Shown: one piece after another, positions 4,332 to 32,027 of the stretch | Layout of the letters: each line of letters begins with the position of its first letter | Numbering within the stretch: position 1 is the stretch's first letter | Source of the DNA: Candidatus Nitromaritima sp. | GTDB lineage: Bacteria > Nitrospinota > Nitrospinia > Nitrospinales > VA-1 | NCBI GenBank assembly: GCA_041938985.1 | Contig: JBGTUV010000002.1 | Coordinates: 1-33,816, forward strand | DNA: 33,816 nucleotides | Reading direction: 5' to 3' | Notes under the pieces: generated by a model | What the model was told of the DNA's origin: nothing | The model's input: only the letters and a program-made list of their open reading frames with translations | Databases searched by the model: none | Program-made: the position numbers and the translations under genes

Positions 4332-4350
4332 TTTTTTCAACTTAAGGTTG

Positions 4351-9818: not shown

Positions 9819-9835
9819 AATGCTGAATATCCTTA

Positions 9836-9957: not shown

Positions 9958-9980
9958 GGGAAAAATGAACAAGAGAAACG

Positions 9981-10000
9981 AGTAACGGTATTCCGTTACT
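9981..10000. promoter_or_regulatory. palindrome AGTAACGGTATTCCGTTACT abutting the activator stop codon (copy 2)
   Basis: 8-bp inverted repeat with core ACGGTATTCCGT at 9985-9996. Its centre is exactly 40 bp from copy 1. Confidence 0.45.
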
Positions 10001-13000: not shown

Positions 13001-13102
13001 ATTTACGGCTAATATCTCTGCCGATTTTTTAGAGAGGACCAACTTTGGGCCGTCTTTACTGTAGAATTGATCTCTTTGAGCCTTATTAATAAAATAGGGC
13101 AT
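10001..13102 (-). CDS. sigma-54-dependent transcriptional activator with multi-PAS and GAF sensory region, cassette 2
   Basis: 1033 aa, collinear with 4367-7510 over the full length. Shared motifs include [57 protein letters not shown] and the C-terminal [16 protein letters not shown]. Confidence 0.92.
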
Positions 13103-14999: not shown

Positions 15000-17900
15000 C
15001 TCTTAAGTTTTGCAAACTGCATATATAGCAGTGGTATTAAGTACAAGCTAATGAAGGTTCCGATTAACATTCCTCCTATCACTGTCAAAGCAAGAGGACG
15101 CTGTAAAAGACCTCCCAATCCATCGATAAACAGAAATGGTACTAAGGCCAAAATAGTGGTAAGTGAAGTCATGACTATGGGTTTCAAACGTAGCTTACTA
15201 CCTTCTTTCACTGCCTCCTCTAGTGGTTTACCTTCTTTTCGCAAAAGGTTAATGGTGTGGATTTTTAATATACTATCGTTAATAATTATGCCGCTCATAA
15301 CCACAATCCCTATCATGGACATTAAATTTATAGTTCCCCCAAAAAGCCATAATAATAATAGGGCTCCACCAATATCGATTGGAACCTCTAGGATAATGAT
15401 CAGGGGTTGCCAAAAGGATTCGAACTGAGCAGCCATTATCAAGTATAAAAGCAGCAATGAGACCGTTATAACAACGGCCAATTCCCCGGCTAATTCTTGT
15501 TTATAGAACCAATTACCATCAAACTTTATATCATAGGGACTAGGCTTAAACCGCTCACGAATTAAATCCATCTGCCTCTCGACATCATTAGGTGAGTTCA
15601 TCTCAAACTCTAAATATTCTCCAATTCTAGAACCGATTATAGACCTGTATTGATTGTCGTTTCTAACCTCGATAAGGTTGCTTACCGCAATCTGTTTCCC
15701 TTCTTCATTCATAACAAAAAGATCGCTAAAAATGGATTCAAAATTGTCAGCTTGGTATACTAGATTGATAGGAATGAAGGACTCAGCCGTCTTGAGATCG
15801 TCTATAAAGTTCTCTCCCAAGGTGGTTTTTAGCTCGGAAAGCAGATCGGCATAATCAACCTTATATAAGAGCAGATTTTCGTGCAGTATTTCTATAGCCA
15901 CAGTTACTTTAGTAGGTATTTCAGAGCTAGTAGTATTACCGAAGAGAACAGCAATATCAGGCAACTCCTTTACTTGAGGCACTTCTAGGGATGATTTAGG
16001 GTACACCTTGGCTATTAGCTCTCTATTATCAGAACCAAAAATATACTCAAATGCTGTCTTTGGTTTACTAAAGCCAAAATTAGCCTTGGGATATTGTTGA
16101 CTCAGTTTCTCTGCAAGTTGTCGTTGACTCCGTTTTATCTTTGCATTGGTCCCTGCATTTAAATAAATCCTGGCCTCTGATGGACTTTTAACCAGCTCTG
16201 ACTGCAACAAATATTGGGTTTCGCCGATTTCCGCAAATTGGGTCTGAATATCATCAACTCCGGAGATCAGGCTTGCAATACGAACCTGACTCTCCTGTAA
16301 ATTTACGGGCTCATTCCAGTCAATAGTCAATTGAGCTTCACCTTGTTCCAAATCTGGCAGCTGCTCGTAACTAATAAGTTGAAAGAACAGCAGTGCGCAC
16401 ACGATACCCACCAAAGAAACCAAGTATACAACCCAAGGTGATTTTGAGAAGTACGCATATCCCTTCACATACATATTCTCCAATCCATTATTCTGCAAGC
16501 GACCCTTTAACCAACGATCGAATCCAAACTCCCTATGGTAAAGTTGCTTGTACAAAACTGGTATAATAAGAATTGAAACCACAAGGGAACTCCCTAGACC
16601 GAGTGAAACAGCAATAGCCTGATCATAGAACAGAGCTCCGGTTATCCCGCTTAAAAAGATAAGAGGCAAAAACACGGAACAAGTTGTAAGAACAGAGCTT
16701 ATTAAAGGAGAAATGATCTCATTGGTACCTTTAACACACGCCTCTGATATCGAGTGGTCATTTTCTAGTTTTTGAGCGATATTATCTGCAACAATAATGG
16801 CATTATCTATCATCATTCCAATGCCGAGAATTAGACCCGACAACGATATAATGTTTACCGAAAGCCCCAAAACATACATTAACAATAAGCTCAAAACTAG
16901 GGACAAGGGTATTGCAATGGCAATGATTAATGGAGATTTTAAGTCCTTTAAAAAGAAGAACAGGATCAAAATTGCGAATAAACCTCCCAGTAGCAGACTG
17001 GATTTTAGGTTATCGATTGAAAGTTTTAACAATCTGGATTGATCTTGATTAGTTTTAAACTGCAACTCAGGATAATCTGCTCTTAACGTCTGCAAAAGCA
17101 AATCCAGCTCTTCTTGCACCTTGTAAACCTGGGTTTCGGCTTGTTTGATGATCGCGAAATTTATACTACGCTGCCCGTCTACGAATACATTGCCCTTCTC
17201 GCGCTGAATCCCCATCTCTATGTCCGCCAATTCCTGCATCTGAAACAATTTGCCCTCTAAATTCAAGTAGAGTGATCTTATATCATCAACATCTCGAAGT
17301 GGATTGGTAAAGCTAAAATTGTATTGATAAATTCCATTCTGGATCACCAAATTCCCCTGGTCAAAATTGTTCTGCTTTATCGCCTCTATTAAAGTATTAT
17401 TGGTAATACCCAGAGACCTAAGTTTGTCAAGCTTCGGACGTATACGCACCTCATTCTTTACTTGACCATTAATATCTGCAAAAGCAATATCCGGAAGTTG
17501 TTCCAAGCGCTTCTTAAGTACCGTTTCTGCAAACAAACTCAGTTCTAAAAAGTCTAGTTTCGTAAAACCATCTTTCAAACTCACTGATAGATTTACAATA
17601 GGAACATCTGTCAGTGAAGCTTTGACAACCCTGGGACGGTCAAGGTCCCGAGGTAAGACATTAAGTGAAGCATCTACTTTTTCATTAGCCTCAACAAAGG
17701 CATAATCGGTATTCGTGCCATAGTCGAACTGTAATTTTAAAGTCGCAAATCCATCCCTGGTCTCACTTCGGATATCCTTTAAATTGCTCAGCTGCAATAA
17801 GCTGTTACGCAAAGGCCTGACTACGTTGGTCTCTAATTCTCTGGCGGTACTGTTAGGATATGCAAGTTGAACGCTAATCTCTGGTACTGCGATATCTGGC

Positions 17901-18004
17901 ATTAATGATGTAGGTATCTGAATGGCCGAAACGACTCCTAAGACAATAAATGCCATAGAAATCATCAGCACTGCAACCGGTCGATCTATTAGGAACTTGA
18001 CCAT
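14996..18004 (-). CDS. RND efflux transporter permease subunit (AcrB/CzcA superfamily)
   Basis: 1002 aa. N-terminus FLIDRPVAVLMISMAFIVLG. Two large periplasmic loops alternate with clusters of TM helices. A TM4-like motif GIGMMIDNAIIVADNI is present. Confidence 0.9.
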   Translation of the reverse strand: MVKFLIDRPVAVLMISMAFIVLGVVSAIQIPTSLMPDIAVPEISVQLAYPNSTARELETNVVRPLRNSLLQLSNLKDIRSETRDGFATLKLQFDYGTNTDYAFVEANEKVDASLNVLPRDLDRPRVVKASLTDVPIVNLSVSLKDGFTKLDFLELSLFAETVLKKRLEQLPDIAFADINGQVKNEVRIRPKLDKLRSLGITNNTLIEAIKQNNFDQGNLVIQNGIYQYNFSFTNPLRDVDDIRSLYLNLEGKLFQMQELADIEMGIQREKGNVFVDGQRSINFAIIKQAETQVYKVQEELDLLLQTLRADYPELQFKTNQDQSRLLKLSIDNLKSSLLLGGLFAILILFFFLKDLKSPLIIAIAIPLSLVLSLLLMYVLGLSVNIISLSGLILGIGMMIDNAIIVADNIAQKLENDHSISEACVKGTNEIISPLISSVLTTCSVFLPLIFLSGITGALFYDQAIAVSLGLGSSLVVSILIIPVLYKQLYHREFGFDRWLKGRLQNNGLENMYVKGYAYFSKSPWVVYLVSLVGIVCALLFFQLISYEQLPDLEQGEAQLTIDWNEPVNLQESQVRIASLISGVDDIQTQFAEIGETQYLLQSELVKSPSEARIYLNAGTNAKIKRSQRQLAEKLSQQYPKANFGFSKPKTAFEYIFGSDNRELIAKVYPKSSLEVPQVKELPDIAVLFGNTTSSEIPTKVTVAIEILHENLLLYKVDYADLLSELKTTLGENFIDDLKTAESFIPINLVYQADNFESIFSDLFVMNEEGKQIAVSNLIEVRNDNQYRSIIGSRIGEYLEFEMNSPNDVERQMDLIRERFKPSPYDIKFDGNWFYKQELAGELAVVITVSLLLLYLIMAAQFESFWQPLIIILEVPIDIGGALLLLWLFGGTINLMSMIGIVVMSGIIINDSILKIHTINLLRKEGKPLEEAVKEGSKLRLKPIVMTSLTTILALVPFLFIDGLGGLLQRPLALTVIGGMLIGTFISLYLIPLLYMQFAKLKR

Positions 18005-18012
18005 AGCAAATA

Positions 18013-19200
18013 TTATAGGAGTTTAAATACCATATATCGTTTTTCATCTTCCTCTTCTTGTTCCAGTACGGGAAAATGCAGGCCTTCCTCTGTGACAAAA
18101 AAATTGTCCCAGATCTGTATTTGTTCATGAGGGAGTTTATAAGAGAATACGGCTTCTGTTTCCAAATCTAGAACAACTAAAGACAAGCCAATCAGCTCAG
18201 CAGTTTCTTTCTCTGTTTCTGCATCAATTATCCTTCGAGATCCATGTTTAAAAAGCCGATAAATGTATCTTCCATTTGGATCTATGGCCATTGTCAAATA
18301 GGTAGGTGATTGATCTGGATTAGGCCCAATACTTATCCCCCCTTCAAAGGTTTTAACAAGAGTATTGTCAAAATACTGCTGGATAGTGGATACTTCTAGA
18401 TCAGAATAGCCCGCATAATAGCTGGCAATCTTCTCATCTTTTCTAAAATGATAAATGCTGTCTCCTATCTCATAGCTGGTGTATAAGAGGTCACCATCTC
18501 TAACAATGTAAAAACCCATGTTTCTAATTCCACCGTTTTCGGCAGTAACCGTATTGTGAGCTAATATCTCGTCATAACCAGACACTAACTCGCGTTCATC
18601 CATATACACCTTTACCACCTCTTTAGATTTTATATCGTATACAACTCGCTTGAAATTGGGCTTTTGTTGGTCTGGCAATACTTGACTGAATCCACAATCC
18701 AATTGATCACCCCTTAGTTGAGTAGCTTGGTCAAGATGAAAGGTTTTTCTTTTAAAGAACCCAGATTGTGATGTTAATTCTGTTTTGTCTTTAACCACCC
18801 CAAACTTGTCAATTATAAAGTAGGCATCCAGATTCGTGGCAAAAATGCTGTCCCAATTTTGCACAAAATAACTCAGGTGACCATACCTTAGTGGCAATTG
18901 ATTAGGACCCTCTTGGTCAAGTACTATCTTATGCACTAGCACTCCTGAATCATAATGATAGGCATAGATGCTGTGATTTTTGCGGTTGAAGAAAGTAAAA
19001 TAAAGACTGTCATTCAGCTCAGTCAGGTTTGGCTGTAAGTACTCGAACGAGGTTTCATTGTCAAGCGCAAATATCTTATCTGTTTGCCGAGTTAATTGTG
19101 GCTTTATTGGCACTTCTCTCTGGGAATTATCAGGACCACAAGCTAAGTATAGCAAGAAACAGCTAATGCCCATAAATTTTAATTTGAAGCTCAAAGTCAA
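18013..19200 (-). CDS. DUF4221-like beta-propeller-type lipoprotein embedded in the RND operon
   Basis: 395 aa with lipobox LYLAC-G. The sequence is rich in aromatic and beta-strand residues. It shares the C-terminal block LSLVVLDLETEAVFSYKL with the paralogs at 21006, 30444 and 32116. Its start directly abuts the MFP stop (19200/19201). Confidence 0.7.
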   Translation of the reverse strand: MTLSFKLKFMGISCFLLYLACGPDNSQREVPIKPQLTRQTDKIFALDNETSFEYLQPNLTELNDSLYFTFFNRKNHSIYAYHYDSGVLVHKIVLDQEGPNQLPLRYGHLSYFVQNWDSIFATNLDAYFIIDKFGVVKDKTELTSQSGFFKRKTFHLDQATQLRGDQLDCGFSQVLPDQQKPNFKRVVYDIKSKEVVKVYMDERELVSGYDEILAHNTVTAENGGIRNMGFYIVRDGDLLYTSYEIGDSIYHFRKDEKIASYYAGYSDLEVSTIQQYFDNTLVKTFEGGISIGPNPDQSPTYLTMAIDPNGRYIYRLFKHGSRRIIDAETEKETAELIGLSLVVLDLETEAVFSYKLPHEQIQIWDNFFVTEEGLHFPVLEQEEEDEKRYMVFKLL

Positions 19201-20376
19201 TTAGTTTGAATTAAATACACCCTCGACTCTAGCATCATGGGCCAAATTTAAATTGCCAGATACAATTATAGAATCCCCTACTTTTAAACTCCCTGGTTTA
19301 AGCGCATAGTGAGAATTATTCTCAGCTATCACATCTACATAATTCCATTTTGCCGATCCGTTCTCATAGACAAACACCACCTCACGGTTAGAACGCAGCA
19401 CCAAAGCTTCTTTAGGAACTACAAAAACATTATCTAGAGGTTGGTTTATAAACACTTTGGCATTCATCCCGTCGTAAAGCCTGTTTCCAGCGTCTTCTAT
19501 AGCTGCGCGGATAGTGATAAGACCGTTCCCGTCTACTAAGGGGTTGACAGAAGTGATTAAACCAGTGTATGTAGCTTGGTCATCAGAAAACGGAACAACA
19601 TTTATCGCCTGCCCGATCGAAACAAAGTTAAATTCAGCTTCAAGCACAGCGAAAACAACATCCAGATTTTGCTGTTCGACCAAGGTACAAAACGCATCTG
19701 CTGAGGTTATATAATCACCTGCTCGGGTTTCAAGGTTGGCCACAAGGCCTGAAAAAGGAGCGCGGACATAGGTCTGTCCTAATTGTAATTTTGCCTCGTT
19801 TAAAGCATTGGCGGCCTCTTGCATTCCAGATCTTAGTTTTAAATTCTTTAAAACCTCATCAGGAATATTGTCTAGTCCGTTCATAGAAGCCCCGTAATTG
19901 ATCTTATCTTCTTCAAATTGGGCTTTGGCCTTATCGAGCTGAATTTGAGCCTTATCTACTGCATTGATCTGTATGGCATTGTCTAATTGGGCCAATAGCT
20001 GGCCCTTGATCACTCTTTGGCCGTTACGCACATTGATTGTAGCGATCTGCCCATTGATCTCGAACCTAAGCTCACTTTTCTGTCTTGATTCAATTTTACC
20101 ATTCGATATCAACTGTTTATCAAAAACTTGCTGTTCTAACGCTACAATTTGTACTTGCGGAGCACTTTTGTCGAAGTTAGAAAGCTGTTCTTCCTGGATT
20201 GCAGCATTGGGGTCATTCTTACAACTACTGACCAAAAGTAAACCTGCAATATAGCATGTACTTATTGTGATACGAGATGGAATCAAAGATCCATAAAAAT
20301 TGAACATGGGGCTGATCTTCATTTTAGGCAACTTAAGAAGAGTAATAATTACACTTGGTAATTCGCCCATTAACAA
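19201..20376 (-). CDS. RND efflux periplasmic adaptor (membrane fusion protein, HlyD family)
   Basis: Lipoyl-hairpin-like GQIATINVRNGQRVIKGQLLAQLD, a coiled-coil segment, and YVRAPFSGLVANL. The ORF-track start is a TTG. A more likely start is the ATG at 20322 (MKISPMF..., lipobox LLVSSC). Confidence 0.85.
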   Translation of the reverse strand: MLMGELPSVIITLLKLPKMKISPMFNFYGSLIPSRITISTCYIAGLLLVSSCKNDPNAAIQEEQLSNFDKSAPQVQIVALEQQVFDKQLISNGKIESRQKSELRFEINGQIATINVRNGQRVIKGQLLAQLDNAIQINAVDKAQIQLDKAKAQFEEDKINYGASMNGLDNIPDEVLKNLKLRSGMQEAANALNEAKLQLGQTYVRAPFSGLVANLETRAGDYITSADAFCTLVEQQNLDVVFAVLEAEFNFVSIGQAINVVPFSDDQATYTGLITSVNPLVDGNGLITIRAAIEDAGNRLYDGMNAKVFINQPLDNVFVVPKEALVLRSNREVVFVYENGSAKWNYVDVIAENNSHYALKPGSLKVGDSIIVSGNLNLAHDARVEGVFNSN

Positions 20377-20545: not shown

Positions 20546-21031
20546 TTATCTACCTCTTAGTTGTTGAGCAAATCTATCAAAGTTCTCCGCTAGGTTAAAG
20601 TAAAAAAACTGACTCAACCTGCCCTCTTCATACTTAAAGAAATAAACCATGGAATTTTTGTAAAAACTAGTATTCACCACTTCAAATCTCTTGTCATAGA
20701 TGATATTATATTTGCCCCTTAAAGCATCGTTTAAGAAGAAATTAGCTTCTTTTTTGGTTTTGGAACTCATTACCAAATAGACAGAAGGATCCCCTCTAAA
20801 AGTCTGTGCTTCCAGTAATCCTTTTATTTTCTCTAGACAGCTTGGACAAATATCCATTGGCAATACCAAATAAATTTCGTTTTGACCACTAATTTCCTGC
20901 CCCGATATATGGTTCAAATAACTCTCGAAATCGGCAGCTATATCGGAATATGCACCAGTCTGCTTACAGGCTAAAAAGAACAGAAGAACAAGACCCCAAA
21001 AAGCCTTAGTCAGATATTTTCGCGTATTCAT
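20546..21031 (-). CDS. CxxC-motif lipoprotein (thioredoxin-like?), paralog A
   Basis: The ORF is open to 21070. The Met at 21031 gives a clean lipoprotein signal (MNTRKYLTKAFWGLVLLFFLAC). The CPSC motif sits in IYLVLPMDICPSCLEK. It is a paralog of 30017-30481 and overlaps the upstream gene's 3' end. Confidence 0.65.
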   Translation of the reverse strand: MNTRKYLTKAFWGLVLLFFLACKQTGAYSDIAADFESYLNHISGQEISGQNEIYLVLPMDICPSCLEKIKGLLEAQTFRGDPSVYLVMSSKTKKEANFFLNDALRGKYNIIYDKRFEVVNTSFYKNSMVYFFKYEEGRLSQFFYFNLAENFDRFAQQLRGR

Positions 21032-22151
21032 AGACCTCGTATTGGAAGGCGTCCTCATCAAAATTATCATTGTTGGGATTGTTTAATGATAGATAAAGAG
21101 CATCGTTGCTAATAAATGAACAACCCAAATTGTATGTGCTGGCCTCGAAACGGTGCTCAGAAATTTTGTCAAGACTCTCATCAAGGACTAATATCACGAA
21201 AGGCTTGGAATGCATATCGTTCAGGTTACCAGAATCTGGATCAACCAAAGGAACTCCTAATGAAATAAACATGAAATAACGCTTCTGCTTTGGGTTGTAT
21301 AGCAATTTCTTATTCTGAAAAGCCTCTATATGAAAATTCATAATTCTTTCATAGTCGTTCATATGTATATACTTTTCAAAATAATCGCTCTTAAACTCTT
21401 TCGATTCCAATTTCCCATTCTTATACCAGTAAACTTTGTCACTAGTCGGAAAAGTAAACACAATACCTTTTTCTGCAGATGAAGTAACAATAGGAGTTAA
21501 ATGTCCAGGATAACGAACAGGTTGCACATAATCCAGTTCATATTTCAGCGGAAGTGCTGACAACTTGCGGGAAGCGATATTAATCCGACCAAAAAGGGGG
21601 TCATTTACTGCCATTTTCATATTCCTAGAATTCAAATTTCTCGGAAACACCACGAAGGTTAATTCCTTGTTATCGAATATTCCTGAATTAGTACCCATTA
21701 ATAAATGGACTTGGCCCAGCTCGAGATCCGGATTGGCATCTCGAAATTTGATTTGATCGTAGATTTCTCCGCTTTCTGTGGTAAAATATAGTGTTTGATT
21801 GTAAGGCCCCAGAAAGAAGATTGTGTCCTTGTTATGATAATAGAAATGTCCATTACCCAAAGTATTATCTCCTCCTTCGACCTTAGTGTTAGCAAGGCGT
21901 CTTAATTTCTGACTAACCAGATCTAATTCTATTAATGACTTGTCGTTCTTGTTCGTATTTGAAATAATTAATTTTTCTTCTTCCGGCAGGTATTGATGCC
22001 TGAGATAATAGGGAGAAGTCTGCGAATCGATACTATAACGAACCGTCGTTTTTAAATTTAAAGTGTAATTGCCCTTTGATGATTGCTCAATACTCTCTGA
22101 TTTACAACCGCACAAAAAGACAAGAACAAAAAGTAATAGTTGAAATTTCAT
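21006..22151 (-). CDS. DUF4221-like beta-propeller-type lipoprotein
   Basis: 381 aa with lipobox VFLCGC. It has the length and composition typical of Bacteroidota DUF4221 lipoproteins. C-terminal block FVILVLDESLDKISEHRF. Confidence 0.7.
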   Translation of the reverse strand: MKFQLLLFVLVFLCGCKSESIEQSSKGNYTLNLKTTVRYSIDSQTSPYYLRHQYLPEEEKLIISNTNKNDKSLIELDLVSQKLRRLANTKVEGGDNTLGNGHFYYHNKDTIFFLGPYNQTLYFTTESGEIYDQIKFRDANPDLELGQVHLLMGTNSGIFDNKELTFVVFPRNLNSRNMKMAVNDPLFGRINIASRKLSALPLKYELDYVQPVRYPGHLTPIVTSSAEKGIVFTFPTSDKVYWYKNGKLESKEFKSDYFEKYIHMNDYERIMNFHIEAFQNKKLLYNPKQKRYFMFISLGVPLVDPDSGNLNDMHSKPFVILVLDESLDKISEHRFEASTYNLGCSFISNDALYLSLNNPNNDNFDEDAFQYEVYEYAKISD

Positions 22152-22405: not shown

Positions 22406-22505
22406 AAGTTTGTATTTAAACCCTACCTACTCTCTTTTGGCTTTTCGGTATCCGCCTATAATATCATAAGATAGATGGAAGTTAAGAATAAGTACCTTAT
22501 AAAAG

Positions 22506-22522
22506 TTGCGCTAAAAGTGCAA
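22506..22522 (-). promoter_or_regulatory. shared 17-nt motif TTGCAC-N5-GCGCAA (copy upstream of P4)
   Basis: The minus strand reads TTGCACTTTTAGCGCAA. It lies ~100 nt upstream of the P4 ATG and 14 nt after the signal peptidase stop. Confidence 0.6.
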
Positions 22523-22535: not shown

Positions 22536-23588
22536 TCAGCGGATAATTTTAACTACTTTTCCTTGAAGAAAATTAAACGGTACTACTCCAAAATTACGAG
22601 AATCAATTGAGCCATCTCGGTTGTCGCCTAAGACGAAAACATAGTCCTGCTTAAATGTATGCAAATTAGTTTCATTGCCAGAAGGAACAGGAGTTTGCCA
22701 ATCCTCAAAATTCTCTAGGATATACTTGTAGAGTGGATAATTCTCCTTATTGATTAGCACAGTCAGACCTTCCCCAGGAACTATAAGAGGTCCATAATTA
22801 TTCGCATCCCAATTTGGGTGTTGACTCCCTCCCAGCAGGCGGGAACCTTTTGTAATTGTGTCCGGACCAATGCTTAGGTTCTTATTTGCCTCCTCGTTCA
22901 CAAATACCCGATATTCTGAATTTGATAAATTTCTTATTGACCTCTTTCCCAGAGTGTTGGTGACAAGATAGTTTTTGCAGTATTGCTCTTTATCGGGAAG
23001 TAGGCTGCCATTTATTGAAACTTGCCCATTTGCTATTAGAAGGGTGTCTGTGGGTAAACCAACGATTCTTTTTACATAATACTTATCGATTTGGTCAATA
23101 GCCTTAAAAACGACAATATCCTCTCTTTGATAATCTTTAAAGGGATTCAATGAAGTAAAGGGTTGGAAGTTTATCGTGTCTACATGAGATTTAAATAAAT
23201 TACCAAAAACAGGGATCTCTTTCCAACTTCTGGGTATACGAGAACCGTAGGCTACCTTGTTGGTAAGAACATATTCTCCTTTAGAAATAGTTCTTTCCAT
23301 GGAGGCTGTCGGCACGTAGTAGTAGTCAAAAAATAAAGTACGTATTAACACAGCAAATAGTACGGGTGTCGCAATGTAAAACAGAAGCGATATTAATTTT
23401 AAAACAATGGATGGAAGCCGAGGTCTTAGAATAGAATACAGATAGCCCGTAGTAACAAAATCGAATACAATCAACAAAAAGATAAACACCAATACGAGCC
23501 GCGACCAGACTAAAAATACAAGGCTAACTACCACGAGCAAAACGAAAATGATCTTTCTGCCTGGGTTTATATTTGATGCTTCTGGCAA
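22536..23588 (-). CDS. lepB: signal peptidase I (S26 family) with extended multi-TM N-terminus
   Basis: 350 aa. Catalytic Ser context PTASMERTI, Lys context YVKRIVGLPTD, and box E GDNRDGSIDSRNFG. There is no in-frame ATG upstream of the catalytic Ser, so a TTG start at 23588 is inferred. About 95 aa of hydrophobic N-terminal extension. Confidence 0.85.
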   Translation of the reverse strand: MPEASNINPGRKIIFVLLVVVSLVFLVWSRLVLVFIFLLIVFDFVTTGYLYSILRPRLPSIVLKLISLLFYIATPVLFAVLIRTLFFDYYYVPTASMERTISKGEYVLTNKVAYGSRIPRSWKEIPVFGNLFKSHVDTINFQPFTSLNPFKDYQREDIVVFKAIDQIDKYYVKRIVGLPTDTLLIANGQVSINGSLLPDKEQYCKNYLVTNTLGKRSIRNLSNSEYRVFVNEEANKNLSIGPDTITKGSRLLGGSQHPNWDANNYGPLIVPGEGLTVLINKENYPLYKYILENFEDWQTPVPSGNETNLHTFKQDYVFVLGDNRDGSIDSRNFGVVPFNFLQGKVVKIIR

Positions 23589-23633: not shown

Positions 23634-24041
23634 TCAACAGATCGTACCTCTCATAATTAACAAAAGGACCACCTTTGACTTTTCAAAATAGACATTGGCT
23701 TTTTGCTCAAAAAAGCCAGTGATTTCATTATTGTACTGTAAGGTAATGAAAGTTCTCTGCCCCGGTTTGATCGGGCTAGAATCCCAGTCGATAACTGTAC
23801 AATCACAGTCAGCATCAATAGATTCTATTCGAATTGGATTAGTTCCATCGTTTGTGATCTCGAAGGTAGCTTTAGATTCACCGCTCTGAGCAACTCTACC
23901 AATATCAATTATATTTTCCTTCAAGGTTGCCTTTACTTCAACAGGTGCATCTTCCTTTTTTAACCATATATTATATGCCTTAATACCCGAAAGGGACAAA
24001 AGAATTACAAGCGCTACCGTCCATATAATCTTTTCTTTCAT
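23634..24041 (-). CDS. DUF1573-like protein
   Basis: 135 aa with an N-terminal TM/signal anchor. Typical DUF1573 pattern: IDIGRV..G....TFEITNDGTNPIRIESIDADCDCT..DW...IKPGQ...ITLQY. Confidence 0.75.
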   Translation of the reverse strand: MKEKIIWTVALVILLSLSGIKAYNIWLKKEDAPVEVKATLKENIIDIGRVAQSGESKATFEITNDGTNPIRIESIDADCDCTVIDWDSSPIKPGQRTFITLQYNNEITGFFEQKANVYFEKSKVVLLLIMRGTIC

Positions 24042-24050: not shown

Positions 24051-25229
24051 TCAATTGAAGTTATAAAAAAACAGTAGGTCGCTGTTCTCGTAATTCAAAG
24101 AGTCTAAGGCTGGTAACAAGTCGGGGTTTATATTCTGCAATACACCAGTAAATTCATCACTGAGTTCTTTGTAGATTTCAAAGCGCTCAAATTGTAAACC
24201 GCTGATGTATTCGCTGGTACTACTTTTACCCACAGGTATTTCCAAAAATCGCAGTGTGAGGTCGTCGGCCTTATTTTGAGGAATATAGGTTTTATCGGCA
24301 TCCTTGAAATAATAAGCCAGATTATACATACTCTCGTTTATAAAAGAGAATGCTATCATATTCGAATCCACATAGTACTTATTGGTTAAATATGCCACAT
24401 CTCTGGCATTGGTTTTTGCGTCAAAACCAGGAAGATCGAACTTTTGTTCTTCTGGCCAGGTTTTTGGCCCAAAATTAAAGCGGTATACGGGTGTGAAATT
24501 GAGTTCATTATCCAGAGAAAGAATAACTGAAGAAGACTTGTAAGTGAAATACACCTTATCTGCCGATTTATTCATGCCTCCAGACAATCCAAAACTTTTG
24601 TAATCATCATAGTCATCAGGATATTTCCCGAAATAGCCAGTAGGAGTTCCAGTTTTTGTGTCTACTATTTTTATAGCGTATTGACCAGGTTCTATATAGC
24701 CGATGGAACAGGCCAGTACGTTGGGCGCTAAAACCGAGAGTGATTCTGGGTAGAATCCTTTAAAATCAACCTTTCGCACAAAATCGTTTTTTGAATTGTA
24801 AATCGTCAAACGAATTTGTGCATCTAGAATGATGATCTCATCATTCTTCTTATCAATATCGAAATCAAAGATAGATTCATATTCCTTTGGGCCACCACCT
24901 CGGATGCCTACTTTATTTAGAAACTTACCACTCTGGTCAAATACGAGGATATTCGATTTTTTCTTATCAAGAACAAAAAATTTATTCTTGTGTTCAATTA
25001 CTTTGTCTATGCTCGCCAAGGCATCTATTTCCGCTATTTCCATTAATGGAATGAATCTACTCTCACCAAATAGCGAAGCTAGGCGTACTTCTAAGTTCTT
25101 TTCGGCCTGGGTAATGTCAATTAATGAGGCTTGTTGATAATCTATGTGATCCTCTTTTTCAACACAACTTACCGAGAACAATAGCATAAAACAAATAAGA
25201 ATTTGAGGCAGCATTCTTTTCATAACCAT
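24051..25229 (-). CDS. six-bladed beta-propeller-type lipoprotein (BF3164-like)
   Basis: 392 aa with lipobox LFSVSC. Motifs typical of the Bacteroidota TolB-like propeller lipoprotein family (IPLMEI..., FFVLDKKKSNILVFDQSGKFLNKVGIRGGGPKEY). Confidence 0.7.
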   Translation of the reverse strand: MVMKRMLPQILICFMLLFSVSCVEKEDHIDYQQASLIDITQAEKNLEVRLASLFGESRFIPLMEIAEIDALASIDKVIEHKNKFFVLDKKKSNILVFDQSGKFLNKVGIRGGGPKEYESIFDFDIDKKNDEIIILDAQIRLTIYNSKNDFVRKVDFKGFYPESLSVLAPNVLACSIGYIEPGQYAIKIVDTKTGTPTGYFGKYPDDYDDYKSFGLSGGMNKSADKVYFTYKSSSVILSLDNELNFTPVYRFNFGPKTWPEEQKFDLPGFDAKTNARDVAYLTNKYYVDSNMIAFSFINESMYNLAYYFKDADKTYIPQNKADDLTLRFLEIPVGKSSTSEYISGLQFERFEIYKELSDEFTGVLQNINPDLLPALDSLNYENSDLLFFYNFN

Positions 25230-25336
25230 TTACGAATTCCGTGAAACATTAAATGTAATGAGATTAAATACAATAAATAAAGTAGCGCAGTCCATAAAGG
25301 GCCGACACTACTTAGCTATTCAGGTTTTAGTTTTTA

Positions 25337-25561
25337 CTACTGATTCGTTCCATCAGGGCAAGGGTTTGGAGCACAATTACCTCCGCCTTGTACACATAGA
25401 GTTCCGATAGATGCATAGAAACCTTCGTTATTGAAACAAGGAATTTCCATAATCTTCTTCACAGGTCCTATTACACTAGCATCCGATTGAAAATAGCCGT
25501 AAAAACTCAACGAAAATGCCGACACCGCTGCTACGACAGTTAATAATTTTAGTTTTTTCAT
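25337..25561 (-). CDS. small secreted 4-Cys peptide (P2)
   Basis: 74 aa. Signal MKKLKLLTVVAAVSAFSLSF.... The mature part has C-x13-C-x6-C-x4-C and ends CVQGGGNCAPNPCPDGTNQ. Paralog of P1. Confidence 0.7.
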   Translation of the reverse strand: MKKLKLLTVVAAVSAFSLSFYGYFQSDASVIGPVKKIMEIPCFNNEGFYASIGTLCVQGGGNCAPNPCPDGTNQ

Positions 25562-25578
25562 GAATATTAGTTTTAGGA

Positions 25579-25800
25579 TTAATTATTGTTTTCGTCGCCG
25601 CATGGATTTGGAACACAATAACCTTCGCCTTGGATACATTCGGCTCCTGATCCAGTTAATCTTCCAGCTGCATCTCTGCAGTCAATTTGATTAATTTTTT
25701 TTGCCTCTGTAAACGATGCTTCTGCCGAGGTGGTATTAACCAGACTCAAACATGTAAAGGCCACTCCTGCAGCTAGGGTGAATAATTTTAGTTTTCTCAT
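25579..25800 (-). CDS. small secreted 4-Cys peptide (P1)
   Basis: 73 aa. Signal MRKLKLFTLAAGVAFTCLSLVNTTSA. The mature part has identical spacing C-x13-C-x6-C-x4-C and ends CIQGEGYCVPNPCGDENNN. Confidence 0.7.
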   Translation of the reverse strand: MRKLKLFTLAAGVAFTCLSLVNTTSAEASFTEAKKINQIDCRDAAGRLTGSGAECIQGEGYCVPNPCGDENNN

Positions 25801-25985: not shown

Positions 25986-26660
25986 CTAAATAATACCCAT
26001 AGATTTAGCCTTTAAGATAAGGGCTCGGTTGCTTTGATCTAAAACCCCAAGCTTTTCTTTAAGCCGCTTTTTACGATACTCTATAGCTCGTTTAGATAGC
26101 AGCAAAGACGCTCTCATTTCTTTATTCGTTGAGCCTTGGTTTAACTCGTTGAGCATTTTTAGGTCGGTTTTATCCATACCTAGTTCCTTTAAGGGATTTT
26201 TATTGAGATAGGCTGTTGTACTTTGGCAATAATAATTGCCGCCAGTAACCACGGCCGCTATAGCACGATCTATCTCCCATGCTTTGATACTGCTCTTTAC
26301 TAAGCAACCCTTGGGATTGAGCTCTGCAAAAATACGGTGCAGGTGCCACCAGGAATAATTTGCTGTAGCCACAATAAGCGGCGTTTCACTGTATTGCTTA
26401 AGTAGCAGGTTTCCCACATCGATACCGTTGAATAAATTGTATTGTGAACTGGCGGGAATTCGAAGATCCAAAATCACCAGATCAAATGGGGTTACGCTTT
26501 TGGATATATAGAAATAAGCTTTCTCACAATTATTGGCTTCATAAACACTAAGAACCTTTTGAGCTTGCTGGACGTAACTCTCTAGTTTAGATACGTAAAC
26601 ATTACGCACAAGAGGTTCGTCCTCTACCAATAGTACTCTGAAAGGCTTGTACATAGACAA
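25986..26660 (-). CDS. LuxR/NarL-family response regulator (orphan)
   Basis: 224 aa. Receiver (RVLLVEDEP, DLVILDLRIP) plus a C-terminal GerE-type HTH (LNELNQGSTNKEMRASLLLSKRAIEYRKKRLKEKLGV). No adjacent histidine kinase. Confidence 0.88.
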   Translation of the reverse strand: MSMYKPFRVLLVEDEPLVRNVYVSKLESYVQQAQKVLSVYEANNCEKAYFYISKSVTPFDLVILDLRIPASSQYNLFNGIDVGNLLLKQYSETPLIVATANYSWWHLHRIFAELNPKGCLVKSSIKAWEIDRAIAAVVTGGNYYCQSTTAYLNKNPLKELGMDKTDLKMLNELNQGSTNKEMRASLLLSKRAIEYRKKRLKEKLGVLDQSNRALILKAKSMGII

Positions 26661-26775: not shown

Positions 26776-29700
26776 TCAAAATGCATCATCAAATTTTCTA
26801 GCTCTTCTTAAGCTAAATAGGGGCAGATAAATTAGTATTCCTACAAAAGAAAAAAGCAGACCGCCTATAGTCCCCGCTCCTAGGGCAAACCAAAAAACTT
26901 CATTCTGCCCGTCAGCCACAAAGGGTATAAAACCGAGAATGGTAGAGATAATGGTAAGTGAAATTGGGAATATCTTCTGCCTGAAGGCTTTTATATAAGC
27001 TGAGAGTCCATCCATACCGGTCTTTCGCAAAAAGTTGAAATCATTTATAATAAATATAGATGCATTGACAGTGAGTCCACTAAGCAAAACAAAACTGGCC
27101 AAACCGCCTTGATCAAAATTATAATCAAACCAGTAAAAGGTCAAAAACACCCCAATAAAAGAAATGGGAATCACGCTTAAAATTATAAATGGCTGCGTAA
27201 AGCTTTCGAAAAGTGTTGCGCAAAGCAGGTATATTATGGCAATAACCAAAAGAAGCAGCCAAGTATATTGCGAGGTTTCCTCTGTTTTGAAAAAACTTAG
27301 ACTCCTCTGGCTACGCTCAAAGGTAAAACCAATGGGTAATGTAGGATTAATACTGTCTAGGGTCTTGCTCAAAAATCGGCTTCCGAATTTTGCAGCACCA
27401 GTATATTGAAATTTTATTTTTCTCAGATATTCCTGATTCTCTTTATCGATATTCTCTTGCTCTTTTACCTTTACCACCGTTCCTACATTGGCGAAGCGTT
27501 TTGGGAAATCAAGACTGTCCATTGGGTTGTTCTTAATATTCCAAAGGTCAAAGTCATAAGCCCTTGTAGATTCAAAACGCAAGGGATAGTTTTGCCCTGC
27601 CAATGTTAAATTAAGATCTGTGTTCTTTTGCAAGCTAACATCTTGTAGTTGCCGCATAAAACGCTGTGGCGAACTGCCTTGCAATGCCAGGGCCTGTTTG
27701 TCTAAGCTAAACTGATATTCATAACCGGACTTTCTTGAAAAGTCACTATTGTCAGTGATTTGGGCTTCCTGTATACGGGGATGTGCCTCTAGTGCTTCCT
27801 TTAATTGCAGAGCTAATTCACTTAATTTTTCATAATTGTAGCCTCTAGCCTGTACCGAATAATTATTGATAGCCCCAACAGCATTACTGTTGTTAAAGCC
27901 TTGTCCAACACCGTAAATACTCCATTCTAGGCCGCCAAAATCTAAGGCTTTTCTAATTAATCTGGCCTTTAGTTGATTAGGAAATGCTGTGTTTACAAAA
28001 TCCTCTTTAAAGGTTATTTCCATACGGGCGTAATCTCCACTATATACATTGGTCACATACCTATCCACTTCGACCATTGGACTCAAATAATTCTCCAAAC
28101 CAAGAAAAACCTCATTCATTTGATGCACTGTGGCTCCTTTTTCCATGCTGCCTATAACATAAAGTTTTGTCTCTTCGTTACGGCTGTAAAAGGCATTCTC
28201 ATAAACGAAGTACGAAAAGAGTCTGAAACTACCCCCTAGATATTTGTCAACAGAAGGCCGTATATGCTCTAAATACCACTCATTACCCAGTGTATTGTTA
28301 TACGCTTTTTGGTACCAGGTTTGATTGCTCTCTAATTGTTTTGGAAGCATAAAGAAAGGCACACCAAAGATCAGGATGAGCAAGATGATAGCCACTTTCT
28401 TATACCCGAGTAAGAACCGTAGTAAATTTGCATATTTTGGATAGAACCAGACCGAGAATCTCTCAATCGCTACATTTTTTTGCTTTGTCTTGTATGCGAT
28501 CCGCTTTAGAATCGCGGGCACCATATAAAATGCAATTACCAAGGAGACGCCAAGGTTTATACTTATAACTTTAGCAAAGTCTATCAAATTTAGTTTGTAC
28601 TCATCATCCAGAAAGTTGATTACGCTCAAAGCACCCATTGTAGTTAAGGTTGAGGCCAATATGGGAATAATGATTTTTTTGTTTCCCTGCATTCTGAGGT
28701 GATCTGTCATTACGATAATATTGTCAATGATAATGCCTAAAGAAATTGTTATTCCCGCCAGAGAATACAACTGAATCTCCACCCTGAATAAATAATAGAA
28801 TACAAAAGCAATACAAATATTTGCGACCAGGCAGATAACCACCGTAAAGAGATATCGCAAAGACAAGCTCACCAAACCTATGAACAATAGTAGGATTATG
28901 AGGGTGTAAATACTGCGCTTATAGATCTTACTTAGTTCTTCCTGTAGGTATGTGGTACTGTCGTAATCTTTTACGATTGTATAGTCTGATGGCAGTGTTT
29001 TCTGAATCTCATCCAACAGTAGGACAACCTCTTTTGCAAGGGCGATAGTGTTTGCGTCTTTGGTCGCGTTCAAACCAATAGTGATGGCATTTTTACCATT
29101 GACACGGTAATAGCTTCTGGCTTCTTGTTCCTGCTTGCGTATCTGAGATATCTCATCGAGGTAAACTATCTTTCCTCCAACCTCAGTTAAGGGAATATGC
29201 CATTGTAATTGCTGCGGCCCAGGTTTAACCACCACGTTGAATTCCAGCATACTTTGATGCACCTTTCCTATCGAAACTCGTTCGAACAGGCGGTCTACTG
29301 CAAAGACAAGCTGCTGCTTCCCTATATTTAAGGCCCTTAATTTATCATTGTTAAAACTAATAAGGAACTCTAAAGGATTGGCACCATTAACGTTCACTTG
29401 ATCAATGCCACTCAAAGAACCGATCTGGGGAACAATACGCGCACTTACTGTCTCTTGTATCTCCAAACGAGAACGCGGGGCATTAACACTATAAGATAAA
29501 AAAACACCTTGTTGATCATCATCCGGGCGGTTAACACTGATCACAGGATAACTACAGTTAACCGGAAAGCTTTTATACAATTGCCGTATCACAGTGGCTA
29601 CTTCGAAACGAGCTATGTCTATATCGGCATATTTATCAAAACTGATCTGTACATATCCTCTAGATTTCGAAGACCTTGAACTTATCTTTTCTATATTCCG

Positions 29701-29904
29701 AAGGGTACTAAAACCACCTTCCAAGGTAGCTGTGATCTGCTGTTCGACAGATTTAGAAGATGCCCCAGGCCAACTGTAATCAACACGTATAGAAGGAGGT
29801 GTTTTACTTGGGTTTAAGCGCAATGACAAACGCGAAGCCAAACCGAGACCTATTATGGTCAAGACCATAATAACAACTAATATTTTAAAGGAAGAAAACT
29901 TCAA
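26776..29904 (-). CDS. RND efflux transporter permease subunit (AcrB superfamily), no adjacent adaptor or outer membrane factor
   Basis: 1042 aa. Two periplasmic loop/TM cluster halves. TM4-like motif GIIIDNIIVMTDHL. TTG start inferred, as there is no in-frame ATG near the N-terminus. Confidence 0.88.
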   Translation of the reverse strand: MKFSSFKILVVIMVLTIIGLGLASRLSLRLNPSKTPPSIRVDYSWPGASSKSVEQQITATLEGGFSTLRNIEKISSRSSKSRGYVQISFDKYADIDIARFEVATVIRQLYKSFPVNCSYPVISVNRPDDDQQGVFLSYSVNAPRSRLEIQETVSARIVPQIGSLSGIDQVNVNGANPLEFLISFNNDKLRALNIGKQQLVFAVDRLFERVSIGKVHQSMLEFNVVVKPGPQQLQWHIPLTEVGGKIVYLDEISQIRKQEQEARSYYRVNGKNAITIGLNATKDANTIALAKEVVLLLDEIQKTLPSDYTIVKDYDSTTYLQEELSKIYKRSIYTLIILLLFIGLVSLSLRYLFTVVICLVANICIAFVFYYLFRVEIQLYSLAGITISLGIIIDNIIVMTDHLRMQGNKKIIIPILASTLTTMGALSVINFLDDEYKLNLIDFAKVISINLGVSLVIAFYMVPAILKRIAYKTKQKNVAIERFSVWFYPKYANLLRFLLGYKKVAIILLILIFGVPFFMLPKQLESNQTWYQKAYNNTLGNEWYLEHIRPSVDKYLGGSFRLFSYFVYENAFYSRNEETKLYVIGSMEKGATVHQMNEVFLGLENYLSPMVEVDRYVTNVYSGDYARMEITFKEDFVNTAFPNQLKARLIRKALDFGGLEWSIYGVGQGFNNSNAVGAINNYSVQARGYNYEKLSELALQLKEALEAHPRIQEAQITDNSDFSRKSGYEYQFSLDKQALALQGSSPQRFMRQLQDVSLQKNTDLNLTLAGQNYPLRFESTRAYDFDLWNIKNNPMDSLDFPKRFANVGTVVKVKEQENIDKENQEYLRKIKFQYTGAAKFGSRFLSKTLDSINPTLPIGFTFERSQRSLSFFKTEETSQYTWLLLLVIAIIYLLCATLFESFTQPFIILSVIPISFIGVFLTFYWFDYNFDQGGLASFVLLSGLTVNASIFIINDFNFLRKTGMDGLSAYIKAFRQKIFPISLTIISTILGFIPFVADGQNEVFWFALGAGTIGGLLFSFVGILIYLPLFSLRRARKFDDAF

Positions 29905-30016: not shown

Positions 30017-30481
30017 TTATAGTGCTCGTTTGTCTAAATACATTTTTGCTTCTTCAATTTTAAAGTCGCTTATGTTCAGATGATAAATGCATTTACCATC
30101 TTTCATATCAACAATCATTGGTTTGGAAAAACCTGTTTCATATTGTGATATCACAAACTTATCATCAACTAAAATGTTATCATACAAATCATACAAATTT
30201 TGAATTTGTAATACCCTTTCCGTATCAAAAGTTTCACCAACTAAGATTAGCTGTACATTGTATTTTGTACTACTTAACAAACCTATATTTAACTTTATGC
30301 AGTTATCACAGCCGTTGATTGGAAGCAAAAAATAAATATTCTCTCCCTCTAAATTGTCAACTTGAAGTTCTTGTGTTAAGTAAGCAGTAAAATCTTCACA
30401 GTAAGCATAAGCACCTTCATTTTTACAAGAAACCAATATCTGGTTAAAAATTAATATGAGTAAAAATGTTCTCGCTCTCAT
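30017..30481 (-). CDS. CxxC-motif lipoprotein (thioredoxin-like?), paralog B
   Basis: 154 aa with lipobox ILVSC. CDNC motif in IYFLLPINGCDNCIKL. It aligns with 20546-21031 and overlaps the upstream gene by 38 nt. Confidence 0.65.
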   Translation of the reverse strand: MRARTFLLILIFNQILVSCKNEGAYAYCEDFTAYLTQELQVDNLEGENIYFLLPINGCDNCIKLNIGLLSSTKYNVQLILVGETFDTERVLQIQNLYDLYDNILVDDKFVISQYETGFSKPMIVDMKDGKCIYHLNISDFKIEEAKMYLDKRAL

Positions 30482-31610
30482 CTTCGATATTTTTAGAGTT
30501 TATCAATATACCAGAAGGTGTTGGTGTTACGGCAAAAAAGGTAAATGCTGATCCATCGAAAGCCATTTCGCCAATTTTAATCATGTTCTCATCAAAAGCG
30601 ATAATTGAGAAACTCCTGTTAAAAGTTGGGTTATTTAATCTATTGGTTAACGGATTCTTTAAGGGTTGTTCATGTACAACCACTCTGTAAAATCTATTCG
30701 ATTCCTCCTCGTACATAAGCCGATTATACGACCCATTGGTTGTTATAAAGCTGATATACTTTTGGGCATCTCGCTTTCTTGGTAATTTTTCAAAAGTGTT
30801 TAAAAAATTACTCTTGCCGTCAAAAACCCCTACTAAACTGTCATTATTTGCCTGATACTTATAAATGTTGTGATCGTATTTCATAGACAAAAAATAGATC
30901 CCTTTATCAAAAAAGGGAATGTAGCTTAAATTGTAATTATTGGGTCTTAAAAAATCTTGATTCGCGTATTGGTCTGGCCATTCCCCGAATGATTCTAAAA
31001 AATTCTCGCTCTCCAGATTAAATTTTCTTGCAAAAGCCTTTTTGTAAAATTCCTTATCAGAATCAAAATTGTAAGGTGGAAATGTTCTAAAATGAATATT
31101 CTTGTTTGTAAGATCGAAATGAAATGAATATGAATCAACAGTTGTAATTTCGAAAAAGTCATCAGTTTGTCCACTTTCATATACATCATTGATATTCCAT
31201 ATCTTCTTAATAACTCCCTTGCTATTTATTAAGCAGAGTTTGGCATTTTTATTCGAGAAAAGGAAAATAGAATCCAGATTCACAGCTAAAAAATCACCAA
31301 ATTCCAATTTGCGCTTTAGGAATTGGTCCGTATTGTAAAAATCTAGAATGGTGTCAATTTTCTTTGCTGTGAGATTGACAAGTTCCAACTTCTGTTGCGA
31401 GGTATTAAGCGTAATAAAATACAGGGAGTCCTTTTGACGCAGCACCTTCTTAGATTTCCCCGTGCCTAAATAATTCCAATCTTTTATTGAAAAGGTATCT
31501 GTACTTAATTTTTCAAGCTTTTGATTCTCCTTATAATCTATTCCAACTTCTTTAGAGTTTCGGGAACAAGAAAAAAGGATAATTACCAGTGAAATAAACC
31601 AAATCTTCAT
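30444..31610 (-). CDS. DUF4221-like beta-propeller-type lipoprotein
   Basis: 388 aa with lipobox ILFSC. C-terminal block FSIIAFDENMIKIGEMAF. Same length class as 21006-22151 and 32116-33282. Confidence 0.7.
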   Translation of the reverse strand: MKIWFISLVIILFSCSRNSKEVGIDYKENQKLEKLSTDTFSIKDWNYLGTGKSKKVLRQKDSLYFITLNTSQQKLELVNLTAKKIDTILDFYNTDQFLKRKLEFGDFLAVNLDSIFLFSNKNAKLCLINSKGVIKKIWNINDVYESGQTDDFFEITTVDSYSFHFDLTNKNIHFRTFPPYNFDSDKEFYKKAFARKFNLESENFLESFGEWPDQYANQDFLRPNNYNLSYIPFFDKGIYFLSMKYDHNIYKYQANNDSLVGVFDGKSNFLNTFEKLPRKRDAQKYISFITTNGSYNRLMYEEESNRFYRVVVHEQPLKNPLTNRLNNPTFNRSFSIIAFDENMIKIGEMAFDGSAFTFFAVTPTPSGILINSKNIEDESENIFTHINF

Positions 31611-31920: not shown

Positions 31921-32010
31921 AATTATGATTTAAGCACCTACTCTATCCAAGGCTTTTCGGTTTACGCCTACAATTAAACCTTGAATGTAAGTATGGTTGA
32001 ATAATTAATA

Positions 32011-32027
32011 TTGCACTTTTAGTGCAA
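32011..32027. promoter_or_regulatory. shared 17-nt motif, perfect palindrome TTGCACTTTTAGTGCAA, in divergent intergenic region
   Basis: Perfect 6-5-6 inverted repeat, ~90 nt from the P3 ATG (31920) and ~88 nt from the ATG of the divergent gene (32116). Confidence 0.6.

Follow-up and report, generated by a model that had tools for sequence, protein, structure and literature searches.

A Predicted Family of Exported Four-Cysteine Peptides Encoded Ahead of Propeller Lipoprotein Genes in Bacteroidota

Secreted peptides that contain disulfides and are served by dedicated accessory genes are already known as a kind. The heat-stable enterotoxins (ST) of Escherichia coli, STa and STb, are made as precursors of ~72 aa with a Sec signal, a spacer and a C-terminal Cys-rich core; their disulfides form in the periplasm, and the peptides leave through a TolC-dependent tripartite pump. 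These toxins use the general DsbA and the ABC-type MacAB pump, have no propeller partner and carry six or four Cys in a pattern different from the one described below. In gut Bacteroides, NVEALA proteins (PF14055) are presumably small signal-bearing peptides, often in tandem, encoded upstream of DUF5128/TolB-like six-bladed propeller lipoproteins. The bacteroidetocins (class IIf), peptide toxins of Bacteroidetes, contain four Cys and have a dedicated thiol oxidoreductase (Coyne et al. 2019, PMC6671954); their locus features a double-glycine leader of 15–16 aa, a C39-peptidase ABC exporter and a protein with five transmembrane segments (PMC6671954). Here, we analyzed two adjacent genes, P1 and P2, in a 33,816-nt stretch of DNA (assembly GCA_041938985.1, Candidatus Nitromaritima sp., contig JBGTUV010000002.1, positions 1 to 33,816), hereafter the window, and compared them with related contigs and proteins, which carry labels within L001–L085 and P0003–P0029. 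What is new is the peptide family itself, together with the obligatory association of its genes with DUF5128 and DUF1573, the linkage to RND (resistance-nodulation-division) pumps and the architecture of the regulon.

A first-pass annotation of the window had proposed that P1 and P2 are tandem paralogs encoding secreted four-Cys peptides, and their coordinates, lengths and 17-nt intergenic gap were all reproduced (Table 1). The precursors begin with MRKLKL (P1) and MKKLKL (P2), followed in each case by a hydrophobic stretch, and the Sec-type signal peptides have predicted cleavage sites of the small-x-small type, AEA↓S in P1 and SDA↓S in P2. Both peptides showed the spacing C-x13-C-x6-C-x4-C (Cys at positions 41/55/62/67 in P1 and 42/56/63/68 in P2) and shared the tail C(I/V)QGxGxCxPNPC, as had been claimed; P1 has an additional Cys, C17, within the signal peptide. 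BLASTP aligned the two proteins with 41% identity (E = 6e-17), and their resemblance is therefore due to paralogy rather than chance. The description of the loop between Cys1 and Cys2 as fully diverged was overstated: P1 and P2 have two glycines in common here, one of which (G52 of P1) is nearly invariant in the whole family and the other common. The motif had not been recognized as a named family, and in agreement with this, no Pfam or NCBIfam model matched P1, P2 or two further peptide genes of the window, P3 and P4, apart from a sub-threshold beta-defensin match of P2. The first-pass annotation had not included the partnership with DUF5128 and DUF1573, the operator common to several peptide genes or the connection with RND pumps.

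Single-sequence word-index protein searches with P1 and P2 returned only same-species copies from marine metagenomes (including Tara Oceans samples), such as P0003, a 99%-identical P2 copy present on 23 marine metagenome contigs. An exhaustive HMMER search with a two-sequence P1+P2 profile against 1.84 billion protein cluster representatives (E ≤ 1e-3) detected 41 proteins, 35 of which were peptides of 48–87 aa that combined a signal peptide with four invariant Cys. Homologs with the same Cys spacing thus occur elsewhere; the first-pass annotation had named their absence as what would speak against its proposal, and this objection falls because such homologs exist. A hand-made degenerate DNA motif for G-x2-C-x2-G-x3-C-x-PNPC was also scanned against one genome per species (185,579 species). 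It gave 42 matches, including 13 small open reading frames (ORFs) with a signal peptide, and all 13 were in Bacteroidota of the classes Cytophagia, Saprospiria and Chitinophagia. Their hosts were Ilyomonas, Lewinellaceae, Saprospiraceae, Dyadobacter sp. SG02, Thermoflexibacter ruber, Algoriphagus winogradskyi, Algoriphagus marinus, a Cytophagales metagenome-assembled genome (MAG) and Bernardetiaceae; Sphingobacteriia were represented by a member from Mucilaginibacter daejeonensis. The same motif revealed five more loci in metagenome contigs. Altogether, the profile search and the two motif scans yielded about 60 relatives of 48–104 aa, all with a signal peptide and the four Cys, which were either annotated as hypothetical proteins or not called as genes, and every named carrier belonged to Bacteroidota.

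The other motif matches (approximately 29 of the 42 from genomes and 27 of the 34 from metagenomes) were discarded as chance occurrences in GC-rich genomes, large proteins (e.g., myxobacterial) or other non-family sequences. Myxococcales and other deltaproteobacterial MAGs (L021, L028 and L044) contained a C-x-PNPC string inside Cys-rich repeats of large secreted proteins, which we judged convergent or EGF-like and unrelated to the peptides. Separately, the P1+P2 profile had repeated matches in three long proteins, P0008 (433 aa), P0010 (383 aa) and P0029 (680 aa), but these were confined to its signal/linker part (E from 5e-9 to 1e-4).

In a multiple alignment of 37 members, the four Cys were invariant, and G52, G58 and N65 (P1 numbering) were at least 90% conserved. 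Cys2 and Cys3 were separated by six residues in 36 of 37 sequences and Cys3 and Cys4 by four residues in all 37, whereas the distance between Cys1 and Cys2 varied from 10 to 16 (mode 13); the tail is CxxNPC. From these sequences, the family may be defined by a signal peptide followed by C-x10-16-C-x6-C-x4-C, with Gly three positions before and three positions after Cys2 and Asn two positions before Cys4, a description that fits both P1 and P2. Tandem pairs were the rule (at least 13 loci), with a triple in L052, and a pair of A-type and B-type peptides was kept across L014, L060, L062 and L063. No Pfam or NCBIfam family reached its threshold for any of the 37 members. Five of them had sub-threshold matches to DUF6520 (PF20130; best E 0.003; P0021, residues 3–62, 15.4 bits against a gathering score of 25.4), which may be a distant sister family. 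Three matched beta-defensin (PF00711) with 17.7–18.6 bits, below the cut-off of 21, over the C..G.G.C..NPC stretch; defensins need six Cys, whereas this family has four. An AlphaFold2 (AF2) model of P1 based on the family alignment (pLDDT 84.9) consisted of a signal helix (residues 2–21), a long β-hairpin (34–42/48–57) and a C-terminal Cys loop, and a Foldseek search of this model against PDB gave no match with E < 1.

For orthologs in two Algoriphagus-like genomes, the ratio of nonsynonymous to synonymous substitution rates (dN/dS) was 0.31 and 0.23 for the peptides and 0.15 for the neighboring propeller gene. These values indicate translated genes under purifying selection and not the hypervariability that had been suggested. 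The idea that P1 and P2 are spurious ORFs, or that their similarity to other sequences is due to chance, could appeal only to small size and to the annotation as hypothetical proteins; family conservation and dN/dS below 1 refute it, and we regard it as effectively excluded, the least credible of the explanations considered here.

The most constant feature of these loci was the gene that follows the peptides. It encoded a DUF5128 protein directly 3' of the peptide gene(s) in 16 of 16 modules tested with Pfam (the window, Mucilaginibacter, L014-16, L026, L027, L030, L031, L039, L050-L053, L058, L060 and two modules in L062). In comparison with PDB sequences, the DUF5128 protein of the window matched TRIM-NHL domains and 4RAA. 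DUF1573 came directly after DUF5128 in 9 of the 16 modules, and its C-x-C-T was invariant in 11 partner proteins which were otherwise only 20–33% identical. DUF1573 appears among the known selenoprotein families, with UGC as its motif (PMC9312934), and this points to redox use of the CxC. Additional Pfam hits of this protein corresponded to a PapD/ASH-like immunoglobulin (Ig) fold, typical of periplasmic chaperones. DUF5128, DUF4221 and DUF1573 are large orphan families, and a literature search found no relevant paper on NVEALA, DUF5128, DUF4221, DUF4934 or DUF6520. Always preceding a propeller lipoprotein gene, genes of the P1/P2 type appear to mark an undescribed peptide system.

The same strict adjacency in 16 of 16 modules would also suit a peptide that is not released at all but serves DUF5128 as a small subunit in fixed stoichiometry, as an inhibitor or as a ligand resembling a cofactor, with the RND pumps either unrelated or exporting another product. 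The predicted long β-hairpins would be appropriate for strand addition to β-rich partners, DUF1573 has the fold of periplasmic chaperones, and linkage to RND pumps is not universal, all of which agree with such a role. However, the terminator-like hairpins that separate peptide from propeller genes suggest that the two products are made in unequal amounts, each single propeller is found with one to three peptide copies, and P1 has been lost where the propeller is unchanged. On balance, we consider a permanently bound partner unlikely.

The loss of P1 was evident from population variation. Of 11 informative metagenome contigs from the same species, 5 were without P1. A tandem P1-P2 allele was present in the window, L005, L007, L009, L010 and L085, and a P2-only allele in L003 (8455-8865), L004, L006, L008 and L011, in which the 5' region of P1 is joined to P2 exactly at the start-codon sequence shared by the two genes. 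A third, chimeric allele in L001 (643-864) combines the body of P1 with the tail of P2, with the crossover within the PNPC codons. Both the loss of P1 and the P1/P2 fusion are products of unequal recombination between the paralogs. In addition, the first 36 residues of P1 were fused with an unrelated 69-residue tail in L002 (511-828), a 991-bp Tara contig; this fusion reflects a rearrangement or else a chimeric assembly.

On the minus strand of the window, the order of genes was: LuxR/NarL regulator, P1, P2, DUF5128, DUF1573, signal peptidase I, P4, 381-aa lipoprotein, 174-aa CxxC protein, membrane fusion protein (MFP), DUF4221, RND and TolC. Upstream on the same strand were P3, a 388-aa lipoprotein, a 154-aa CxxC protein and another RND pump. 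RND pumps were recurrent neighbors of the family, and L060 contained peptide, peptide, DUF5128, DUF1573, MFP and RND in one gene run. With pumps, four Cys in the peptide and CxC or CxxC in the partner proteins, one might think of peptides that buffer metals or redox state through their thiols and cooperate with an efflux pump, much as the periplasmic metallochaperone CusF does, and the MFPs had weak CusB/CzcB-type matches. However, the RND permeases scored best with multidrug (HAE) models rather than CusA/CzcA, for which reason heavy-metal efflux was rejected; the spacing of the Cys does not resemble that of known metal sites, and no metal-sensing regulator is present. Such a function is very improbable. 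The small Cys-rich peptide genes in tandem with accessory genes next to them might also be taken for ribosomally synthesized and post-translationally modified peptide (RiPP) precursors that are heavily modified before export, for example by radical-SAM chemistry. However, none of the approximately 25 loci contained radical-SAM, YcaO, lanthipeptide or peptidase-ABC genes, and the N-terminus is a classical Sec signal and not a leader; a RiPP origin is scarcely credible and is effectively excluded.

Three peptide genes of the window, P1, P3 and P4, had the same element upstream, a 17-bp palindrome (TTGCACT-N3-WGYGCAA) which occurs at exactly three sites in the window, compared to 0.07 expected by chance; all three sites are located 65–117 nt upstream of these genes. 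It is likely their common operator. The palindrome overlaps a possible Bacteroidota -7 box (TTTG), and a sigma-70 promoter scan gave nothing above chance, its model being unsuited to Bacteroidota. Other lineages had their own, different operators, each common to all peptide operons of the lineage. Two ATAGGAA-N3-TTCCTAT dyads preceded the peptide operons of L014, L016, L060, L062 and L063, and in Thermoflexibacter ruber (L039) a near-identical region of ~200 nt with (ATAATTC)n heptamers was found upstream of positions 233, 2992 and 7274, i.e., before all three peptide operons. We also observed poly-G tracts of 7–10 bases just upstream of operators in L014 (~8770-8790 and ~12160-12175), L016, L052, L058 and L062. 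In L014, they coincide with the 3' ends of small GerE regulator genes. Such tracts are candidate sites of slipped-strand phase variation.

Two peptide genes of the window had a further element in their 5' leaders, the Rfam cis-regulatory RNA motif DUF805b (RF02914), with scores above the gathering score of its covariance model (35.6 bits). Upstream of P1, no match reached this score. In L030, a Saprospiraceae MAG, the motif preceded both four-Cys peptide genes (2425-2457 and 2755-2787; 46.1 and 42.1 bits). Its presence in the leaders of P3, P4 and both L030 peptides suggests that this orphan motif may regulate small Cys-peptide genes that annotation has missed.

A regulator gene is directly upstream of the peptides in five distant lineages: the window, Dyadobacter (GerE-containing), L014 and L063 (GerE-only) and Mucilaginibacter (LytTR-only). 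Regulators of the LytTR and LuxR types are classical controllers of loci for bacteriocins and for quorum sensing by peptides. Together with the single operator common to all peptide operons of a genome and the non-cationic nature of the peptides, this arrangement would be consistent with autoinducing or signaling peptides, sensed perhaps via the propeller lipoprotein and feeding back through LuxR, GerE or LytTR onto the palindromic operators. However, the module encodes no sensor kinase, the GerE-only and LytTR-only proteins are without an obvious input domain, and at least three unrelated peptide families in one regulon would not be typical of a signal. Neither purifying selection nor the loss of P1 from some strains helps to tell this reading from the others. 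A role as autoinducers is, in our view, possible but improbable.

The first-pass annotation had also viewed P3 and P4, whose Cys patterns were as it described, as following the logic of P1 and P2, and this view was borne out: each is a peptide gene with a propeller-like lipoprotein, a Cys-motif partner and the same palindrome upstream. A DUF4221 gene (32116-33282, plus strand) is divergent from P3. Comparable modules were detected in other genomes. In L014 and L016, a module was composed of a GerE gene, a 53-aa C-x6-C peptide (P4-like and in the same position), DUF4221, a kinase, a CxxC protein, an MFP and an RND pump. Another family of signal-bearing peptides, with the motif CRCH...C...C.C, was present in L016 (586-807) and L039 (2992-3219 and 3247-3441); its genes precede a ~385-aa lipoprotein, a CarboxypepD_reg protein and DUF1573, and thus represent a third peptide type with the same module logic. 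In the window, the secondary-structure order of the 174-aa CxxC protein fits a thioredoxin fold.

We tentatively suggest, at clearly less than an even chance, that these modules reflect a phylum-wide pathway, in which unrelated families of Sec-exported Cys-peptides, each with its own dedicated propeller lipoprotein (DUF5128, DUF4221 or relatives) and dedicated Cys-motif partner, would form one regulon per genome and be expelled via RND-TolC. In the same tentative proposal, co-regulation of the modules would depend on an operator particular to the lineage, joined in some lineages by DUF805b.

For P1 and P2 themselves, we favor, with about an even chance of being correct, the reading that they are precursors of an unnamed, Bacteroidota-wide family of exported peptides, i.e., disulfide-locked hairpins matured with the help of a propeller and a redox partner and released via RND-TolC. 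The peptides would be expressed from the first genes of the operon, from a promoter with the 17-bp palindrome that the adjacent LuxR-type regulator probably reads, and the hairpin after the peptide genes, a possible attenuating terminator, probably allows an excess of peptide over the downstream proteins. Terminator-like hairpins are also located after P4 (22160-22185) and P3 (31623-31646). The Sec signal peptide would be removed at the AxA site, leaving ~45 residues, and the mature peptide would be a β-hairpin onto which the C-terminal CxxNPC loop is stapled by two disulfides. In the periplasm, the membrane-anchored DUF1573 protein with its invariant CxC may oxidize or chaperone the peptide, a role that a thioredoxin-like CxxC protein would have in the P3 and P4 modules. 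The DUF5128 NHL-propeller lipoprotein would bind the peptide as a chaperone, immunity protein or receptor, and the linked MFP-RND-TolC pump would move the folded peptide across the outer membrane. Outside the cell, the peptide might serve as a signal or act on other cells like a bacteriocin, in many cases with two peptides working as a pair. The computational results cover the existence of the genes, the conservation of the family, the signal peptide, the Cys scaffold, the hairpin model, the gene order, the common palindrome and the invariant CxC; the biochemical steps of the scheme, from cleavage to the extracellular role, are inferred.

Several observations weigh against this reading. P1 is dispensable, since many strains have P2 only, and this speaks against a mechanism that requires both peptides in this species. 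The charge of mature P1 and P2 is acidic to neutral (net about -3 for P1), unlike that of most membrane-active bacteriocins; dN/dS below 1 does not point to an arms race, and we saw no obvious candidate for a small membrane immunity protein at the locus. The RND linkage is frequent but not universal (none within the retrieved sequence of Mucilaginibacter or Algoriphagus), the RND pumps of the window are of the generic HAE type, and to our knowledge no role of RND pumps as exporters of peptides has been established. Of the hairpins, the one that follows P2 is weak (z = -0.9). Finally, a thioredoxin-like nature of the CxxC proteins in the P3 and P4 modules is only suggested by modeling: the top Foldseek matches included ResA/TlpA but none was significant (E ≥ 0.13), the AF2 model of the 154-aa protein was of low confidence (pLDDT 52.5), and its profile had a weak match to a thioredoxin oxidoreductase among PDB sequences (E 0.18) as well as a probably spurious match to GhpA.

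Table 1. Positions of the peptide genes, their partners and putative regulatory elements in the window
Feature	Position	Strand	Remarks
P1	25579..25800	-	73-aa precursor; signal peptide ~1-28 (AEA↓S site), then four-Cys core
P2	25337..25561	-	74-aa paralog of P1, identical Cys spacing
Stem-loop and U-rich tract between P2 and propeller gene	25280..25313	-	Weak; fold z-score only -0.9
DUF5128 protein	24051..25229	-	Six-bladed NHL-type β-propeller lipoprotein (lipobox LFSVSC); Pfam E = 4.5e-32
DUF1573 protein	23634..24041	-	Membrane-anchored, Ig-like, CxC motif (DADCDCT); Pfam E = 2.3e-22
Signal peptidase I (S26)	22536..23588	-	Seen only in same-species loci; not conserved in other loci
P4	22211..22405	-	64 aa; signal peptide and C-x6-C
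381-aa lipoprotein	21006..22151	-	Lipobox FLCGC; paralog of the 388-aa protein that follows P3 (E = 4e-8)
174-aa CxxC protein	20546..21070	-	Probably thioredoxin-like
MFP, DUF4221 lipoprotein, RND pump, TolC	13647..20376	-	MFP 19201-20376; DUF4221 18013-19200; RND 14996-18004; TolC 13647-14999
NarL/LuxR-type response regulator	25986..26660	-	Directly upstream of P1
Divergent RND permease	26776..29904	-	Between P3 module and regulator
388-aa lipoprotein and 154-aa CxxC protein	30017..31610	-	Downstream of P3; lipoprotein 30444-31610, CxxC protein 30017-30481
P3	31687..31920	-	77 aa; signal peptide and C-x7-C-x6-C-x6-C
17-bp palindrome TTGCACTATATGCGCAA	25865..25881	-	65 nt upstream of P1 ATG; putative operator
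Palindrome, copy 2	22506..22522	-	Upstream of P4
Palindrome, copy 3	32011..32027	-	Divergent region between P3 and DUF4221 gene
DUF805b RNA motif (RF02914)	22424..22458	-	P4 5' leader; 42.7 bits
DUF805b RNA motif	31935..31970	-	P3 5' leader; 40.6 bits

Among the other genes of the window, signal peptidase I is possibly just a housekeeping enzyme. Its length was 350 aa in the type found in the window and 254 or 317 aa in other strains (L003, 10902-11666; L012, 2075-3028), which suggests an indel or a start-site difference in the N-terminal membrane region. Two paralogous regulatory modules (window 1-13100) adjoin the peptide supercluster. Each consists of a ~1040-aa multi-domain protein and of proteins of 365/388, 146/143 and 131/154 aa; by eye, the ~1040-aa proteins resemble a sigma-54-type activator.

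Environmental Bacteroidota (Cytophagia, Saprospiria, Chitinophagia and Sphingobacteriia) are major members of marine and soil communities, in which peptide antagonism and communication are almost uncharted. The strict gene order, shared operators and RND linkage turn several DUFs and one orphan Rfam motif into a testable system, and sequenced, named carriers are at hand in Algoriphagus marinus, A. winogradskyi, Dyadobacter sp. SG02, Thermoflexibacter ruber and Mucilaginibacter daejeonensis. Should they turn out to be toxins or signals, the peptides would represent a new class that is easily synthesized, with ~45 residues and two disulfides. If a phylum-wide pathway exists, it would add a new way of maturing and exporting peptide effectors and would give DUF5128, DUF4221, DUF1573 and DUF805b their first functions.

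How the peptides relate to described systems differs from case to case. NVEALA peptides have an NVEALA motif which P1-P4 and the 37 family members lack, and the PF14055 HMM (hidden Markov model) had no match at E ≤ 1 in any of these sequences. Similar to the class IIb two-peptide bacteriocins, two diverged paralogous peptide genes lie side by side, and A and B types are kept in the four loci mentioned above; however, class IIb peptides have double-glycine leaders, GxxxG helices and a dedicated ABC exporter and are without a disulfide scaffold, and P1 is dispensable in many strains. The similarity to the E. coli heat-stable enterotoxins lies in the plan of the precursor and in the proposed route through Sec, periplasmic disulfide formation and a TolC pump, whereas P1 and P2 differ from ST in the propeller partner, the Cys pattern and the absence of a Pfam match. 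Compared to bacteroidetocins, P1 and P2 use Sec signals, are accompanied by a DUF5128 propeller, DUF1573 and RND pumps, and show no sequence similarity. A double-glycine cleavage motif was absent from P1, P2 and 35 relatives, all of which have an n-region, an h-region and a Sec signal of the AxA type, and Pfam detected neither a C39-peptidase ABC exporter nor the protein with five transmembrane segments in the window cluster or in related loci. The two groups also share features: both consist of ribosomal Bacteroidota peptides of ~42–45 residues with four Cys thought to form two disulfides, and both form small, variable gene families. The bacteroidetocin locus has a dedicated thiol-redox gene; in the family described here, four invariant Cys are accompanied by an invariant CxC in the DUF1573 partner, for which a redox role is predicted, and a thioredoxin fold is only suggested for the CxxC proteins.

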